A stretch of 64,000 nucleotides of DNA from an uncultured Clostridia bacterium (GCA_934141445.1 CAKPCF010000004.1:15526-79525); one strand, 5' to 3'; positions 1-58,962 are shown, counted from the stretch's first letter. Notes: a model not told the origin generated them from the letters alone. Translations and numbers: made by a program.

Positions 1-192
1 TTCTATAGTTTTTATTTTAGAATAAACAACACTAGATTTTTTAGAATCTTGCCAAAAATTTTCTGACATGCTTTCTTTTTTTAATTGTTCAAGTTCATTT
101 TGCAGACTTTTCAAGTTAATTGTTTCTTTTAGTTTATCTAATTTTTCATTCAAGCTATTTAGTTCTCTTAAATTATTGTCTAAATCTAGCAT
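1..192 (-). CDS. prfB: Peptide chain release factor 2, N-terminal 64 codons (gene runs off the window start)
   Basis: Hand translation from ATG at 192-190 gives MLDLDNNLRELNSLNEKLDKLKETINLKSLQNELEQLKKESMSENFWQDSKKSSVVYSKIKTIE. A helical N-terminus followed by an E.FW.D motif about 45 residues in is the RF2 N-domain pattern. AAAGGAA lies 7 nt upstream and an in-frame TAA sits just before the ATG. It is absent from the ORF track because the window edge truncates it. Confidence 0.55.
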   Translation of the reverse strand, partial: MLDLDNNLRELNSLNEKLDKLKETINLKSLQNELEQLKKESMSENFWQDSKKSSVVYSKIKTIE

Positions 193-346
193 TTACATAT
201 TCCTTTCATATCAATTTAAACTATTATAATTATAGCTTATTCATCTTTAATAGTCAAATAATTTTATACTATAATATATTTGGTATGTTTTTATAAATAC
301 ATGCTGATTGTTGGTTTATAAAGTTAACATAATTTTATAAATTTTC

Positions 347-375
347 TTGACATTTATTCCCAATGGATTTATAAT
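347..375 (+). promoter_or_regulatory. Sigma-70-type promoter of the 64-aa ORF unit
   Basis: TTGACA (347-352), 17-nt spacer, TATAAT (370-375). Both hexamers match consensus exactly at optimal spacing, about 55 nt upstream of the ATG at 432. Confidence 0.55.
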
Positions 376-431
376 AAATTTATGCGGTATTTTGGTATCG
401 TAAATACATATTTTTTGAGAGGTATTTTGTT

Positions 432-626
432 ATGGCTTCTTTCGTGAAGAACTCGTGCATCAACAACCCCACCGTTACTGTACAGCGGATGACTAATTTC
501 ATGGTCGATCCTAAGCGTGTAGGAAATGCAGTTGCTAACAGCAACTATTACTGGTGGACTTGGCAACAAAAGCATCGTGAATTCTTGAAAAGCGTGGAGA
601 CAGCAAAACGTCAGGTTAACCTGTGA
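432..626 (+). CDS. Hypothetical 64-aa soluble protein (NYYWWTWQQ aromatic patch), foreign composition
   Basis: ORF track. GAGAGG (417-422) lies 9 nt before the ATG. Codons end mostly in G/C (hand count about 45% GC, 88/195). It has its own promoter and terminator. I recognise no family, and a non-coding RNA cannot be excluded. Confidence 0.45.
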   Translation: MASFVKNSCINNPTVTVQRMTNFMVDPKRVGNAVANSNYYWWTWQQKHREFLKSVETAKRQVNL

Positions 627-696
627 GCTGTATTCATAAGTCACAACATCAAAAAAGACTGAGGTTTCCCCCTAAAAACCTTAGTTAATCCTCACG

Positions 697-745
697 CACC
701 GTCAGTGAGCTGTCCAGCCTGGGCAACACTGACGGTGTTTTTATT
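697..745 (+). terminator. Rho-independent terminator of the 64-aa ORF unit
   Basis: An 11-bp perfect stem, CACCGTCAGTG (697-707) with CACTGACGGTG (727-737), is followed by TTTTTATTTTATT. Confidence 0.75.
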
Positions 746-775
746 TTATTCTGAAAAAATAGTAAACTCAATTTT

Positions 776-804
776 TTGACAATTATGTAAAGTCGTGTTA
801 TAAT
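776..804 (+). promoter_or_regulatory. Sigma-70-type promoter (extended -10) of the paralog pair
   Basis: TTGACA (776-781), 17-nt spacer, TGT-TATAAT (796-804). The hexamers match consensus exactly and there is a TGn extension. Confidence 0.6.
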
Positions 805-875
805 ATTGTTTATTCGAAATTATTTTTGATTTTTATGAAAGGGTGGTATTTTTTGACTACTTAGAATCACTTCAT

Positions 876-964
876 GTTCGAATATTCACCACTGCAAGAA
901 TATAATAGTTCTTGTTGCAAATGGAGCATTTGCTCTAAGGAGTAAAACAATGGAAGAAAACATT
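876..964 (+). repeat. Conserved structured leader, copy A (includes RBS and first 5 codons of the 950 gene)
   Basis: 83/89 nt are identical to 1329-1417 at a constant offset of 453 nt. It contains hairpin CAAGAAT/GTTCTTG, hairpin GCAAATG-GAG-CATTTGC, then AAGGAG 8 nt before the ATG. Confidence 0.85.
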
Positions 965-1312
965 GTAGCATGGACATTGCTGAATAGATTTGAGAAAGAC
1001 TATAACTTGATATCTTCTTTTCAGCCTAAATTTGAAACTGTGCAAAACTCTGATGCCTTTCAGAAGTTGCTCGATGAATGTGTCGGCTTTTTTGACTGTA
1101 CCCTTCTAGGTAGAGTAGATAATGGTGTTTTTCCTATTAGCTACAGCCTAATATGTGGAGTTATCGACACAACTTCAGAAATTAGAGAGATTGATAAGGA
1201 AATTCCTTTTTCTCTTGATATTGCACGTGATGCTGTTGTTAATATGCTGTCTGCATTAACGCAAGCTTATCAAAAGGAGCTTGAAATCTTTAAAAGAAAT
1301 AACAATCTTTAA
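950..1312 (+). CDS. Hypothetical 120-aa acidic protein, paralog 1
   Basis: ORF track with an AAGGAG RBS. By eye it is about 40% identical to the 1403 product (shared SSF..F..VQNSD.F..LL..C, FP.S, A.VNM..AL...YQKELE.F). No family recognised. Confidence 0.7.
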   Translation: MEENIVAWTLLNRFEKDYNLISSFQPKFETVQNSDAFQKLLDECVGFFDCTLLGRVDNGVFPISYSLICGVIDTTSEIREIDKEIPFSLDIARDAVVNMLSALTQAYQKELEIFKRNNNL

Positions 1313-1328
1313 AGACTTTACAACCAAA

Positions 1329-1417
1329 GTTCGAATATTCACCACTGCAAGAGTACAATAACTCTTGTTGCAAATGGAGCATTTGCTCTAAGGAGTAAAA
1401 CAATGGAAAAAGACATT
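1329..1417 (+). repeat. Conserved structured leader, copy B
   Basis: See copy A. The four differences upstream of the ATG all fall in the first hairpin (two stem pairs changed with pairing kept, one loop position). Confidence 0.85.
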
Positions 1418-1768
1418 AAGGAAATGTTGAAAACTTTCGAAGCAACCAATAGCTCTATCTCTTCTTTTCACCTTCAGTTCGGCTCTGTGCAAAACTCTGA
1501 TGAGTTTCTAGATTTGCTCATCAAATGTGCAAATTTTCTAGATGACGATGTCAAAAAAGGCATAGATGAAAGCATTTTTCCTGTAAGCAACTGTTTGGTC
1601 TGGGGGTTTAGTGATGTCATCAGTTACCTTATCCATGTAGATATCAATGTATATGAAAATTCTTATCCTCTTGATATCACTAGTGAGGCTATCGTCAACA
1701 TGATGTTTGCTTTGCGTTGTTCCTATCAGAAAGAGCTGGAGGCTTTTAGAAAAGACAACAAAGCTTAA
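1403..1768 (+). CDS. Hypothetical 121-aa acidic protein, paralog 2
   Basis: ORF track with the same AAGGAG RBS context. Paralogous to 950..1312. Confidence 0.7.
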   Translation: MEKDIKEMLKTFEATNSSISSFHLQFGSVQNSDEFLDLLIKCANFLDDDVKKGIDESIFPVSNCLVWGFSDVISYLIHVDINVYENSYPLDITSEAIVNMMFALRCSYQKELEAFRKDNKA

Positions 1769-1808
1769 AAAACTCACATCAATATTTCTTCTTTGTTTAA
1801 ATCCTAGC

Positions 1809-1876
1809 AAAAAGTTGCCAGTTCGTGCAAGATTTAGCTGAAATTGCTAATCATTGCACAGCTGGCAACTTTTTTA
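1809..1876. terminator. Long GC-rich bidirectional hairpin terminator
   Basis: AGTTGCCAG (1813-1821) pairs with CTGGCAACT (1862-1870), with further inner pairing (GTGCAA/TTGCAC). An A-run lies on the left and TTTTTT on the right. It can stop both the plus-strand paralog operon and the converging minus-strand sigma operon. Confidence 0.7.
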
Positions 1877-1950
1877 TTTATAAATCTTAAAACTAACAAA
1901 TTCATCTTCAAGTCATTGTAAAACTAACATTGTAATAATACTATAGCATT

Positions 1951-3054
1951 TTAATTACTATAATACATTGTAGCTCCACCAATAATTTCACCAGTAGTAG
2001 CATCAACAAAATAGTTCCATATTCCTTCTGTATATCTTTTTACAACATCTTTATAATTGTCTTCATATTTTATTGTTACTACCCAAGCATTTCTTATTCT
2101 CTCATCTATTAGATAATATTTTCTTGCTTCACTTGGATAATCTACGGTTTGCATTGGCTTATAAAATTCTTCTTTATTCAAACTTCTTTCATAAGCTTTA
2201 GTATTCATTTTTACAACTTCAAGTGTTGCATCAACAGAATCTATTTTATTGCTTTCTACATTTTCATCTTCCATTAAAGCTATTTTTATAGCCTCTTCTT
2301 TAGTAATTTTTATTTCGTTATTATCAAAAGATTCATTTTCTGTTCTAATATATTCAAATTTATTATCTTTTGCATTTATTTCGATACATATATATTCATA
2401 AGGATTATATGTTTCATCATATTTTTTTAGATATTCAATACTAACATAGTTGCCCTCTTCTTCATCCTTTTCACTATTTTTCTTAGCATCATATGATTTT
2501 ATTTCTGTAATATCATAACCTGTTGTATCAATATCAAATTGTTTTAAATATTTATTTGCAACTTTTTTAGCCTCTTCTTTTGATATTTTTTCATCTTCAT
2601 TTTGTGATTGCGTTTGATTATTCCAAATTTCAAAAAATTCGCCACTAAAACCATCTATAGATATAGAATAGTCATCTTCTGTTTCAAATCTATACATAAT
2701 TTTATCTGATTCTACATCTGCCTTATAGTTATCACTTCCTAGTATGTCGCTATTTAGCCCTGCTTTTTTTAGTTTCTTTATAGCAATTTCTTTTGCCTCT
2801 TCTTCTGATATATTAAATTTTTTATTTTCTTCTGTAATCTCAAAAGCTGGGTTTTCTATTTGTTTAGGTACTTTCCAAATTTTTTCTATTATTGTATTGC
2901 CGGCAAAGGCAACACCACTTATTGAAATTATAGTACACGCAACTAATCCTAATTTTTTAATACTGGTTACTTTGTTTGTTTTTTCATCTTCAGTACTATC
3001 CATTTTTGATATAGCTATTCTGAATTTTAGCTTTTCTTTTATATTGTCATTCAT
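1951..3054 (-). CDS. Membrane-anchored PepSY-repeat protein, probable anti-sigma factor by position
   Basis: ORF track. It has an N-terminal cytoplasmic segment, one TM helix (LGLVACTIISISGVAFA), then three I(S/T)xEEAKxxA PepSY-like repeats. Its start is 1 nt after the stop of the upstream sigma gene. Confidence 0.5.
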   Translation of the reverse strand: MNDNIKEKLKFRIAISKMDSTEDEKTNKVTSIKKLGLVACTIISISGVAFAGNTIIEKIWKVPKQIENPAFEITEENKKFNISEEEAKEIAIKKLKKAGLNSDILGSDNYKADVESDKIMYRFETEDDYSISIDGFSGEFFEIWNNQTQSQNEDEKISKEEAKKVANKYLKQFDIDTTGYDITEIKSYDAKKNSEKDEEEGNYVSIEYLKKYDETYNPYEYICIEINAKDNKFEYIRTENESFDNNEIKITKEEAIKIALMEDENVESNKIDSVDATLEVVKMNTKAYERSLNKEEFYKPMQTVDYPSEARKYYLIDERIRNAWVVTIKYEDNYKDVVKRYTEGIWNYFVDATTGEIIGGATMYYSN

Positions 3055-17732: not shown

Positions 17733-17831
17733 TTTTATTTCCTATCTTTTATTTAATATAATTTTATATACTATTTTATATCATTTAACTCCAAAAAAGT
17801 AAACTGCTTTTATCACATTTTAACATATTGC

Positions 17832-17887
17832 TCATACACTTTACTAATTTTAATATTAAAAGATGGTTTATATGTTTGTTTTCAATT
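17832..17887 (+). repeat. 56-bp direct repeat, left copy (decayed copy of the RBS and first 5 codons of the 18344 gene)
   Basis: 53/56 identical to 18304-18359 at an offset of 472 nt. The SD is AGATGG here versus AGGTGG in the right copy. The ATG at 17872 opens a 36-codon frame that runs into the island. Confidence 0.9.
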
Positions 17888-17888
17888 A

Positions 17889-17929
17889 TAAAAAAGAAAA
17901 CTCCCACTCAGCCAAGTTGCCAAATGGGA
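17889..17929 (-). terminator. Possible terminator of the 59-aa membrane ORF
   Basis: On the minus strand a short stem UCCCA/UGGGA (17929-17925 / 17906-17902) is followed by GUUUUCUUUUUU. The stem is weak and the U-tract is strong. Confidence 0.4.
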
Positions 17930-18235: not shown

Positions 18236-18303
18236 AAAAGTTATTATTTTTCACAAAAGTATGATTGAAAAATAAAAATCTTTATCATAATTTTGTTTCT
18301 TTA

Positions 18304-18359
18304 TCATACACTTTACTAACTTTAATATAAAAAGGTGGTTTATATGTTTGTTTTCAATT
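18304..18359 (+). repeat. 56-bp direct repeat, right copy (functional RBS and start of the 18344 gene)
   Basis: See the left copy. It contains AAAGGTGG and the ATG at 18344. Confidence 0.9.
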
Positions 18360-18901
18360 TTAAATTAAAAAAATCAAATATTGCAAAAATTCTTTTAGTG
18401 TTATTCGCTATATTTTGCATCATTTTATGCTGTATTGCAGTAAGTAAAATGCTAAAAAATATTACCAAGGAAAATACTTTTGTAGACAGCAATTGTCTAC
18501 CTTCTAATGATGTTGCAACACTTACTGAAAAAAATTATACAAATGTTTTAAAAATGGTTCATGATGATTTAAATACATATGTTGGTCAGCAAATTTGCTT
18601 TACTGGTTATGTTTATCGTGTGCCAGATATAAAAGAAAATCAATTTATCCTAGCCAGAGACATGTACATAGATTCTAATCATTTGCAATCCGTCATAGTT
18701 GGTTTCTTATGCAGTTTAGATAATGCTAAAGACTTCCAAAATGGTGATTGGGTTAAATTAACTGGTACAATAGAAAAAGGAGAATACTTTGGCGAAATTC
18801 CAATCTTGAAAGTCTCAAAAATAGAAAAAACTTCTGCTCCTGAAAATAAATTTGTAGAGCAACCAGATGAAGCTTATGTTCCAACAGCTGCAATATACTA
18901 A
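18344..18901 (+). CDS. Single-TM protein with a DUF1980/TIGR03943-like C-terminal domain
   Basis: The ORF track starts at an upstream GTG. I prefer the ATG at 18344, 5 nt after AAAGGTGG. It has an N-terminal TM helix, and the C-terminal pattern (FILARDMY...GDWVKLTGTI...PILKV..IEK..AP) resembles that family. Confidence 0.5.
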   Translation: MFVFNFKLKKSNIAKILLVLFAIFCIILCCIAVSKMLKNITKENTFVDSNCLPSNDVATLTEKNYTNVLKMVHDDLNTYVGQQICFTGYVYRVPDIKENQFILARDMYIDSNHLQSVIVGFLCSLDNAKDFQNGDWVKLTGTIEKGEYFGEIPILKVSKIEKTSAPENKFVEQPDEAYVPTAAIY

Positions 18902-36629: not shown

Positions 36630-37274
36630 TTATTTTTCTAACTGTTGTTTTCTATATTCATCAAAATCTATTGTTTTGCCTGTACCTCTAACGCTAATAT
36701 CTTCTTTTTTGAATACTTTTATAAAAGTTTTGAAAAATATTTTTACATCATTTATAAATGTAATATTATTTACATATTCAATATCATAAGCAAATCTATC
36801 TTCCCAATTAAGATTATTTCTACCATTTATCTGTGCTAATCCTGTCAATCCAGGTCTAACATCATGTCTGTGTTTTTCCTTTTCGTTATAATATGGCAAA
36901 TAAGAAACAGCAAGAGGTCTTGGACCAATTAAGCTCATTTCTCCTTTTAAAATATTTACAAGCTCTGGTAATTCATCTAAGCTTGTGCTTCTTAACACTT
37001 TTCCAAATTTTGTTAATCTGTCTTTATCTGGAAGTAAATTTCCATTCTCATCTTTTTTATCTGACATTGATCTAAATTTATACAATGTAAATATTTTTCC
37101 ATCTTTTCCAGGTCTTTTTTGCTTGAAAATTACTGGACTTCCTAATTTAAACCTTACCAAAATTGCAACAATTAAATAAATTGGTGATAAAATTATTATT
37201 GCAATTAAGCTTATTAGAAAATCTAAAATTCTTTTAACATATTTAGCGTACATAATTCTCCTACTTATAATCAT
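36630..37274 (-). CDS. Small monotopic phosphoglycosyl transferase (PglC/EpsL-like sugar transferase)
   Basis: Re-entrant helix LSPIYLIVAIL, then YKFRSM, LDELPEL, LIGPRP, RPGLTGLAQ. The start may be the internal MYAKY. Confidence 0.85.
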   Translation of the reverse strand: MIISRRIMYAKYVKRILDFLISLIAIIILSPIYLIVAILVRFKLGSPVIFKQKRPGKDGKIFTLYKFRSMSDKKDENGNLLPDKDRLTKFGKVLRSTSLDELPELVNILKGEMSLIGPRPLAVSYLPYYNEKEKHRHDVRPGLTGLAQINGRNNLNWEDRFAYDIEYVNNITFINDVKIFFKTFIKVFKKEDISVRGTGKTIDFDEYRKQQLEK

Positions 37275-53772: not shown

Positions 53773-55140
53773 CTAAACAGCTCCTTCTTTTTTTACAACG
53801 GAAATTACTGTTTTTAATAAGATTCTTATATCTAATTTAATAGACATATTCTTAGCATAATACGTTTCCATTTCAACTCTTTCTTCGTAAGACGTATTAC
53901 TTCTTCCATTTGCTGCCCAATAACCAGTGATACCTGGTTTTACACTTAAAACCTCTGATTTATGTTCACCAAAAAGATCAATTTCACCATCTATTACAGC
54001 ACGTGGTCCTACTAAACTCATTTCACCTTTTAATACATTAATAAATTGGGGAAATTCATCTAAGCTTGTTTTCCTTAAAAAATGTCCTACTTTAGTTATT
54101 CTCGGATCATTTTGTAGTTTTCTAGTTGTTTCAAATTCTTTTCTTAAATCTTCATTTTCCTCAAGAATCTTTTTTAATTTTTCATCAGCACCAACAACCA
54201 TACTTCTAAATTTATACATTTTAAAGTATTTTCCATCTTTACCAATTCTTTTTTGAGCATAAAAAAGTGGTCCATTCTCTTTATTTATAAAATTAACGAT
54301 TGCAACAATACAAGTTAACGGAATCAATATTATAATTCCTACTAAACCACCACATATATCTATGCATCTTTTTATAAATAATGTTATTCCTTTTACAATA
54401 TCATTTGCTAAATCATTTACTTGAACGCCAACATCTGAATATGTATCTTTTCTTTTCAAAGTTACTAGCATAGTGATTAGTAAAACTTTTAAATCTAGTA
54501 AGAAATTCTTTCTATAATGATATCTTAAATCCATATCCAATCTATCTGCAAACTCTACTCTAGCTCTTCCAGAAATTTGGCTTATTCCTGTGATACCTGG
54601 TTTATGTTGAATTATGTAAGAATAATATTTTCCCATATCTTCTTGTTCTTCCGGTCTATATGGTCTTGGCCCTACTAAACTCATTTGACCTTTTAAAATA
54701 TTAAGCATTTGAGGTAATTCATCTAAACCTGTTTTTCTTAAGAAATAGCCTGCCTTAGTAACTCTTGGATCATTATACAATTTCTTATACTTATTAAATT
54801 CTTCTCTTCTATTTTCATCAGTATTTAAAATTTTTGTAAGTTCTTCATCTGCATTTTTATCCATTGTTCTGAATTTATACATTTTAAATACTTTTCCGTT
54901 TTTTCCAATTCTATCTTGTGTATAAAATATTGGTCCATAATCCTTGTTAATAGCATTTTTTACGGCTACTGCTATTGTTAATGGAACTAGTAAAATCAAC
55001 CCTATAAATGAAACTAATATTTCGAATATTCTTTTAAAGAAAGCCTTTAGTAATTGTTTAATTTTTACTAGTATTCTTTTTGCAAAATTTCTGTGCAATG
55101 CTTTTGCATCAAATGGAATAGCTAATTGCTCCTCATCCAT
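53773..55140 (-). CDS. Tandem (duplicated) monotopic phosphoglycosyl transferase, PGT-PGT fusion
   Basis: The product has two complete sugar-transferase modules. Module 1 has LLVPLTIAVAV, KMYKFRTM, LDELPQ, LVGPRP, KPGITG. Module 2 has ILIPLTCIVAIV, KMYKFRSM, LDEFPQ, LVGPRA, KPGITG. The DE dyads are 221 residues apart. I moved the start to the ATG at 55140, 10 nt after GGGGGAG. Confidence 0.8.
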   Translation of the reverse strand: MDEEQLAIPFDAKALHRNFAKRILVKIKQLLKAFFKRIFEILVSFIGLILLVPLTIAVAVKNAINKDYGPIFYTQDRIGKNGKVFKMYKFRTMDKNADEELTKILNTDENRREEFNKYKKLYNDPRVTKAGYFLRKTGLDELPQMLNILKGQMSLVGPRPYRPEEQEDMGKYYSYIIQHKPGITGISQISGRARVEFADRLDMDLRYHYRKNFLLDLKVLLITMLVTLKRKDTYSDVGVQVNDLANDIVKGITLFIKRCIDICGGLVGIIILIPLTCIVAIVNFINKENGPLFYAQKRIGKDGKYFKMYKFRSMVVGADEKLKKILEENEDLRKEFETTRKLQNDPRITKVGHFLRKTSLDEFPQFINVLKGEMSLVGPRAVIDGEIDLFGEHKSEVLSVKPGITGYWAANGRSNTSYEERVEMETYYAKNMSIKLDIRILLKTVISVVKKEGAV

Positions 55141-58846: not shown

Positions 58847-58875
58847 ATTATACTATAAATTTTATTTCATTTCAA
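58847..58875 (-). promoter_or_regulatory. Promoter of the AAA ATPase gene
   Basis: On the minus strand: TTGAAA (58875-58870), 17-nt spacer, TATAAT (58852-58847). The -35 box lies inside the first 23-bp repeat unit. Confidence 0.5.
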
Positions 58876-58962
58876 TGATTTGTGGTATTTTATTTCAAAG
58901 ATTTGTGTTTTTTCATTTCAAACATTTGTGGTATTTTACTTCAAAGATTTGCGCTACCAAAG
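58871..58962. repeat. Four tandem 23-bp direct repeats (TTCAAAGATTTGTGGTATTTTAT-like)
   Basis: Units start at 58871, 58894, 58917 and 58940: ttcaatgatttgtggtattttat / ttcaaagatttgtgttttttcat / ttcaaacatttgtggtattttac / ttcaaagatttgcgctaccaaag. The period is exactly 23 bp. Confidence 0.85.

Follow-up and report, generated by a model that had tools for sequence, protein, structure and literature searches.

Why should two neighboring genes that have diverged widely, both in protein sequence and at synonymous sites, be preceded by leaders that are nearly identical? We examine this question at a locus in a 64,000-nucleotide stretch of DNA from an uncultured Clostridia bacterium, here called the window; coordinates count from its first letter, and the features of the locus all lie on the plus strand. 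Gene A (950–1312) encodes a 120-aa protein of an orphan family, predicted to be a four-helix bundle, and gene B (1403–1768) encodes a 121-aa paralog. A preliminary description, made from the sequence alone, had reported an 89-nt repeat in front of them and a protein identity of roughly 40%. Alignment reproduces both: positions 876–964 (copy A) and 1329–1417 (copy B) match at 83 of 89 nucleotides, without gaps and at an offset of 453 nt, and the proteins are 41% identical (dS = 1.67, dN/dS = 0.27). Each copy comprises the same 74-nt leader segment, which in copy A is the leader's 3′ part, and the initial 15 nt of its gene. Copy A contains a first hairpin, hairpin 1 (894–915), the Shine–Dalgarno (SD) sequence AAGGAG (937–942) and the ATG (950); copy B contains the corresponding hairpin (1347–1368), SD sequence (1390–1395) and ATG (1403). 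Four of the six mismatches (900, 903, 908 and 909) lie in or adjoin hairpin 1, and the other two (956 and 959) fall in codons 3 and 4. The changes originally described in this hairpin, CAAGAAT/GTTCTTG to CAAGAGT/ACTCTTG, are also found, converting an A-U pair into G-C, a U.G wobble into U-A and one loop nucleotide, although the hairpin is longer than first described, with 8 bp and a basal G.U pair. Beyond the edges of the block, the same register yields 14 to 22 matches per 60 nt, which is the chance level, and in the 64 kb two sub-patterns of the repeat, 24 nt and 28 nt long, each have exactly two occurrences with up to three mismatches, while shuffled sequences give an expectation of zero. 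The repeat is genuine and non-random.

The two genes are part of an island, at about 300–1900, with a GC content of 31–43% inside a genome of 22–27% GC. Its upstream portion begins with promoter P1 (347–375), a TTGACA-17-TATAAT sequence that matches the consensus at 12 of 12 positions, followed by a small gene, ORF64 (432–626), that encodes a 64-aa cationic, Trp-rich orphan protein with a WWTW motif and has a GC content of 41–43% against a genome background of about 23%. The 3′ UTR of ORF64 carries an 11-bp hairpin (657–686) with the C-rich loop CCCCCUAA and then an intrinsic terminator (696–745), in which a 12-bp stem with an inner hairpin precedes a U tract. The loop is unchanged across all alleles, the hairpin's stem shows compensatory or wobble changes in two of them (L014 and L001), the terminator has pair-preserving changes in L027 and L013, and segment 640–745 folds as a whole with a z score of −7. 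The C-rich loop is reminiscent of those in Firmicute small RNAs; pairing between it and the leader or SD sequence was considered and rejected, because the duplex (−10.8 kcal/mol) is no better than the mean for shuffled loops (−12.8 kcal/mol).

Downstream of this terminator, promoter P2 (776–804; TTGACA-17-TG-TATAAT, 12 of 12, with an extended −10 element) is the predicted start of the A–B transcript. The leader (811–949) has a 5′ half (811–875) that is present only before the first gene, an SD-like element, GAAAGGG, near its predicted 5′ end and a predicted long-range helix (811–818 with 877–884) that encloses two inner helices. A promoter scan found no promoter-like site 5′ of copy B, so that A and B should be co-transcribed. 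The region ends with a long-stem terminator (1814–1876) that forms a conserved 3′ boundary. Two perfect 12/12 sigma-70 consensus promoters less than 430 nt apart are unusual and suggest that both island genes are expressed very highly or under the control of a repressor.

All contigs that encode the A/B protein family come from human-gut metagenome assemblies, and the host is one uncultured, spore-forming human-gut Clostridia species. Every contig that reaches the flanks places the island at a single site, with prfB on one side and a PepSY-like gene and an ECF sigma factor on the other; the neighboring genes, as assigned with Pfam, are prfB, aspartokinase, yabP/Q, the PepSY-like gene, the ECF sigma factor, a HAD hydrolase and a glycosylase. 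When 185,579 species reference genomes were scanned with the leader pattern, one true locus was found, as a single occurrence in an uncultured Clostridia MAG (L027), and the remaining seven matches were due to chance, as were all matches in the JGI metagenomes and IMG/VR (the chance matches over the exact-pattern scans of genomes and metagenomes are L021–L026 and L028–L030). A phage- or plasmid-borne moron was rejected as an identity for the locus: blastn found no match in phage or plasmid collections, IMG/VR held no relatives and the flanks are chromosomal housekeeping genes. Its moron-like traits are solely the raised GC content and the possession of its own promoter and terminator. A literature search for a described equivalent of the locus returned nothing relevant.

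We now turn to other strains of the species, where the coding sequence behind the leader, here called the cassette, is of several kinds. All 23 contigs read that carry the exact gene A have the A + B arrangement of the window, and likewise those that carry the exact gene B. Other strains have a single cassette, which is a B-like gene in L008, a 130-aa gene of the P0002 type in L001–3, L015–16 and L014, a 117-aa gene of the P0004 type in L009–12 and L027, and a gene of the P0005 type in L013. There are at least four deep cassette lineages, with protein identities of 42–63% between them (42–54% when the comparison of A with the P0002 type is left out), dS values from 0.6 to saturation and dN/dS ratios of 0.2–0.5. 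The preliminary description had asked whether homologous leaders elsewhere diverge as fast as their genes. Instead, across eight haplotypes from other strains, the leaders are 92–100% identical, with 0–9 substitutions per 139 nt (12–14 in L014, mostly in the 5′ half), despite cassette proteins that are 40–60% identical.

The boundaries of this contrast are sharp. Over the 4.8 kb that lie to either side of the cassette and take in ORF64, the intergenic block and the leader, strains L015 and L027 are 97–100% identical, while their identity falls to 55–78% across the cassette coding sequence alone. Among alleles, conservation stops about 13 nt inside the coding sequence and restarts about 25 nt past the stop codon. 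ORF64 is hypervariable as well, with 53–61% amino-acid identity between strains and a dS of 1.5–2.4 between the window and the others. The modules also reassort. One ORF64 type is paired with two cassette types, and P0004-type cassettes occur behind two leader haplotypes, one of which is common to P0002-type cassettes, although the comparators are metagenome contigs, many shorter than 2 kb, in which assemblers may switch strains inside conserved blocks, so that the apparent reassortment may in part reflect chimeric assembly. Finally, the background divergence between the window strain (L004) and L027 switches abruptly inside the island, at about 657: the left-flank genes (prfB, aspartokinase, yabP/Q, divIC) differ with a dS of 0.5–1.0 over at least 4.5 kb, and the right-flank genes with a dS of 0.06–0.15 over at least 4 kb. 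Together, the reassortment of ORF64 and cassettes and this switch in divergence identify the island as a recombination mosaic of deep alleles. In its own right, a switch of this kind points to a large recombination import or to a mosaic genome.

With a probability of about 0.62, we therefore read the repeat as the shared, moderately constrained 5′ UTR of a hypervariable locus whose alleles are exchanged by recombination, with two such alleles stacked in the window strain and hairpin 1 kept as an mRNA element. According to this model, a scaffold that consists of the C-loop hairpin, a terminator, a consensus promoter, the approximately 140-nt leader and a downstream terminator would surround a coding cassette that is hypervariable among strains. 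Ancient cassette lineages would be swapped between strains by homologous recombination, an inferred mechanism whose breakpoints would lie in the leader and the terminator, both of which are conserved. Consequently, the leader would seem unduly conserved chiefly because, unlike the coding parts, it has the same recent ancestry as the species background.

The two leader copies in the window have distinct affiliations within the population. All six mismatches between them are population polymorphisms; the A state is confined to the window type, and the B state, the more common one, is shared by L001, L009, L013 and L027. Throughout its 74-nt leader and first codons, copy B agrees at 100% with the leader of strain L008, which has B only, and gene B is 98% identical in nucleotide sequence to that strain's single cassette, compared with 88% for the cassettes of L027 and L009. 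An allele with A alone was not found among the contigs examined. Since copy B shares its leader sequence with a strain that has B alone, the tandem looks like two stacked alleles rather than an old duplication with a protected leader. In the simplest history, the stacking may have occurred when the B cassette became attached behind A, bringing along 74 nt of the leader that belonged to it, with the junction at GTTC and probably by an illegitimate or unequal crossover. The 3′ UTRs of other cassettes contain AAAGTTC or AGTTCAAT, which may have offered microhomology for such a junction. The reverse history, in which one cassette was lost from an ancestral array through recombination between repeats, is a possibility. 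Having been joined together with its 74-nt leader segment, B would keep its own SD sequence and translation initiation region on a bicistronic mRNA transcribed from P2.

Two rival explanations attribute the repeat to processes that act on the DNA itself. After an old tandem duplication, gene conversion could have recurred in the leader alone and homogenized both copies within the genome; ongoing conversion of this kind had been proposed from the outset. Two direct copies that lie 453 nt apart and are 93% identical, in front of genes with saturated dS, are what such a process would leave. However, we see no sign of it: the copies retain distinct haplotypes in each of the four window-type contigs that were read at the DNA level, and copy B exactly matches the leader of single-cassette strains rather than copy A. 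Moreover, single-cassette strains carry the full leader in front of B-like, P0002-, P0004- and P0005-type genes, which makes leader similarity a population-wide feature and not a product of intragenomic conversion. We consider this explanation improbable. The repeat might alternatively be a dedicated recombination site, similar to an integron attC site or a shufflon, or a dispersed mobile repeat that captures cassettes, and the layout does resemble cassettes, with a palindrome-containing repeat before each gene and sharp boundaries. Integron cassettes have an adjacent intI integrase and attC sites with GTTRRRY core sites that bound each cassette. Here, Pfam detected no intI or other recombinase among the genes called in about 5 kb per side, the repeat starts with GTTCGAA, which is not GTTRRRY, and there is no common cassette-end site, because the conserved sequence that single cassettes meet at their 3′ ends is a different one. 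An integron cassette was rejected on these grounds, and a dispersed REP-, BOX- or MITE-like element was rejected because the repeat has only two copies in the 64-kb window and one in the reference genome of the species. A recombination-site origin is thus highly improbable, and exchange by homologous recombination between alleles is the reading that we retain.

We next quantify the selection on the leader itself by comparing its substitutions (811–949) with the synonymous divergence of the right flank in the same strain pairs. The observed and expected numbers were 7 and 17.7, 9 and 21.1, and 3 and 7.7, which places the leader at about 40% of the neutral rate (each of the first two comparisons gives a P of about 0.003, and the three are not independent of one another). 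The leader is therefore under moderate purifying selection as mRNA, as is normal for a 5′ UTR. With a rate only about 2.5-fold below neutral, recent shared ancestry alone accounts for most of its conservation. Selection on the leader, as put forward in the preliminary description, is supported to the extent that the leader evolves more slowly than synonymous sites and hairpin 1 stays paired, but it is not the main cause of the contrast between the leaders and the coding sequences of A and B. That contrast arises mainly because ancient alleles recombine inside a young, species-wide scaffold.

Hairpin 1 is 100% paired in the eight haplotypes, through A-U, G.U and G-C states, and has four haplotypes of its own: the A type (A-U, U.G), the common type (G-C, U-A), that of L014, which is a G.U intermediate, and that of L015, in which a G-C pair became G.U. 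All four variants fold on the sense strand with energies of −6.3 to −8.9 kcal/mol. The antisense strand reaches only −2 to −4 kcal/mol in three of the four, and artificial hybrids of the two arms reach −3.5 and −4.7 kcal/mol. Stability that is limited to the sense strand favors a stem-loop that acts at the level of the mRNA. The covariation analysis that had been suggested gave a divided answer. Pairing is kept throughout, but one compensatory change in a single lineage and three wobble changes are not significant, since 131 of 500 shuffles do as well with a sample of only eight closely related haplotypes from a single species.

The remaining helices of the leader are less consistent. A second hairpin (917–933), initially described as invariant, has A.C mismatches in L013 and L014. 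It competes in copy A with two other predicted hairpins, of which the pairing at 922–937 is intact across alleles and the pairing at 929–946, which would sequester the SD sequence, is lost in alleles that lack T943. Position 943 has a one-base indel polymorphism (T, none, or AA), and the spacer between the SD sequence and the ATG consequently varies from 6 to 8 nt, which argues against any fixed SD-sequestering structure. Other predicted leader helices contain A.C or other disruptions. Apart from hairpin 1, no single regulatory fold is supported. Hairpin 1 was also considered as an intrinsic terminator or attenuator and rejected: its stem is followed by UGCAAAUGG, with no U tract, and a scan of the leader revealed no terminator-like site.

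Could the leader nevertheless represent a new family of RNA dedicated to regulation in cis, for example a translational switch that responds to a protein, a small RNA or a ligand? Strong selection would then act on it before every cassette, and a duplication would have retained the leader because B needs the same control. Its slower evolution relative to flanking synonymous sites, the sense-strand pairing of hairpin 1 in four haplotypes and the overlap of three mutually exclusive hairpins of similar energy with the SD region are all compatible with a switch, as is the leader of L014, where the 3′ 74 nt are 96% conserved and the 5′ half only 84%, compared with 97–100% for the 5′ half in the other alleles. 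But the constraint is moderate, and given recombination it is unnecessary for explaining the identity of the leaders; the covariation is non-significant; the SD-sequestering helix disappears with T943 while the spacer changes length; and an element confined to one species has no phylogenetic depth. In addition, Rfam 15 returned no match overlapping the leader (811–949) or its copy (1329–1402) when window positions 1–3000 were searched at E values up to 10, and no match at the gathering threshold over the whole window. We regard a new regulatory RNA as unlikely, though it deserves to be kept in mind. Far less credible is a Cys-rich leader peptide, encoded in the conserved segment and translationally coupled to the downstream gene, which had been raised as a competing interpretation. 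Copy A does contain a 23-codon micro-ORF (874–945) whose stop overlaps the SD sequence, and some of the changes in the hairpin are synonymous in its frame. As already reported for the window, however, no SD sequence precedes position 874, and the equivalent frame in copy B is open from 1303 without a start codon. The other alleles refute the proposal: L014 has a premature stop (TGG to TAG), in L001, L009 and L027, which lack T943, the frame loses its stop and reads on into the main ORF (a 142-aa ORF), the end of the frame differs in L015, and there are missense differences in L027 (F to S), in L013 (L to M and C to Y) and in L015 (S to F). Attenuation by a leader peptide or upstream ORF was accordingly rejected, as the start, ribosome binding site and stop are not preserved in homologous leaders. 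In L001, L009 and L027, the ATG at 874 is in frame with the cassette ORF and could add a 25-aa N-terminal extension.

Within the reading of the repeat as a shared 5′ UTR, hairpin 1 would thus be maintained as an 8-bp sense-strand stem-loop preceding each cistron. Selection on this stem-loop is plausible, and its most plausible role would be that of an mRNA-stabilizing or processing element, or of a participant in alternative pairings around the SD sequence.

The window contains further repeats at a distance from the island. Segments 17809–17903 and 18281–18375 form a 95-nt direct repeat that is 82% identical at a spacing of 472. Its second copy spans the start of a 188-aa membrane-anchored ORF (18335–18901), taking in the first codons and the region upstream of them, and its first copy resembles a truncated duplication of this gene start. 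At 58862–58951, a 23-nt unit (TTATTTCATTTCAAAGATTTGTGG-like) is repeated in tandem about four times and might form an iteron or operator array. Three paralogous coding segments (36921–37121, 54004–54294 and 54667–54957) are 71–84% identical, and the latter two are adjacent, at a spacing of 663 nt. They are probably tandem paralogs.

The more interesting object at this locus is not the leader but the orphan, deeply polymorphic two-gene island. The cassette family forms five protein clusters (P0001–P0005) among the 5.8 × 10^9 and 1.84 × 10^9 proteins searched, and ORF64 has relatives in only two further clusters. A profile search against the 1.84 × 10^9 representatives recovered the family itself and three spurious repeat-type matches, with no remote homologue, and a profile search of the PDB gave no match. 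Searches of A, B and ORF64 against Pfam, NCBIfam, PADLOC and PHROGs yielded sub-threshold noise only. AlphaFold (AF2) predicts with confidence that A is a four-helix bundle (pLDDT of 91), for which Foldseek against the PDB and BFVD returned generic or designed four-helix bundles only, with E values above 0.02; the model of ORF64 is unusable (pLDDT of 59). Between alleles, ORF64 has a dN/dS of 0.15–0.3, which supports it as protein-coding. The window's exact ORF64 sequence has no called-gene record in the public collection searched, where the alleles of other strains are called. No recognizable toxin was found near the cassettes, and ORF64 is unclassified. An immunity protein for a bacteriocin or polymorphic toxin was rejected as an assignment for the cassettes, which match no immunity family in sequence or structure and have no recognized cognate toxin adjacent, although they may be functionally analogous to such proteins.

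Hypervariable cassette loci usually mark conflict between strains or between phage and host. It is tempting, though tentative, to regard ORF64 and the cassettes as an undescribed conflict system, for example toxin/immunity or anti-phage, under balancing selection, with the invariant, structured scaffold serving both as a shared post-transcriptional control element and as homology arms. If so, the C-loop hairpin, promoters and leader of the scaffold would double as arms for swapping or stacking cassettes. An island built entirely of orphan proteins is a candidate for a new small module of defence or competition. If our reading of the repeat is right, a conserved leader in front of diverged paralogs is the signature of a recombination-driven hypervariable locus, and not evidence for a riboswitch-like RNA, and the island offers a clean natural case of regulatory scaffolds that act as recombination arms. 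For genome scans the caution is that population data are needed before selection on RNA is inferred from the conservation of leaders within one genome.

We conclude by comparing the locus with known systems. Firmicute 5′-UTR and intercistronic stabilizers include the ermC and aprE leaders, the cryIIIA STAB-SD and processed operons such as cggR-gapA, and hairpin 1 may be likened to them as a modest stem-loop shortly 5′ of each cistron's SD sequence. The GAAAGGG element close to the 5′ end of the leader and the lack of a U tract after hairpin 1 are further points of resemblance. Unlike the 5′ stabilizers, it is situated in copy A about 85 nt from the predicted 5′ end and not at the end itself. 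The Mycoplasma vsp/vlp loci and the Borrelia ‘upstream homology box’ loci reuse a conserved block of promoter, leader and ribosome binding site in front of divergent genes, as is the case here, and recombination is thought to maintain their conserved 5′ block. The products of those loci are surface lipoproteins whose signal peptides are conserved; a genome has many copies of the genes, which undergo phase or antigenic variation. Here, in contrast, the products are predicted cytoplasmic four-helix bundles without a signal peptide, present in one or two copies and varying between strains.

A further comparison is with the agr hypervariable region of Staphylococcus aureus, the pneumococcal blp and comCD pherotypes and the orphan immunity-gene arrays of polymorphic toxin or bacteriocin loci. 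Unlike these systems, the island has no adjacent toxin, double-glycine bacteriocin precursor, transporter or quorum-sensing genes, its cassette proteins match no immunity, defence or phage family, and its ORF64 types are uncoupled from cassette types. The cassette products are small helical proteins that correspond in size and fold class to the immunity proteins of class II bacteriocins. As in these systems, deep alleles lie here at one site within near-identical flanks, their boundaries are sharp, neighboring modules reassort and cassettes are occasionally stacked in tandem, each with its own ribosome binding site.
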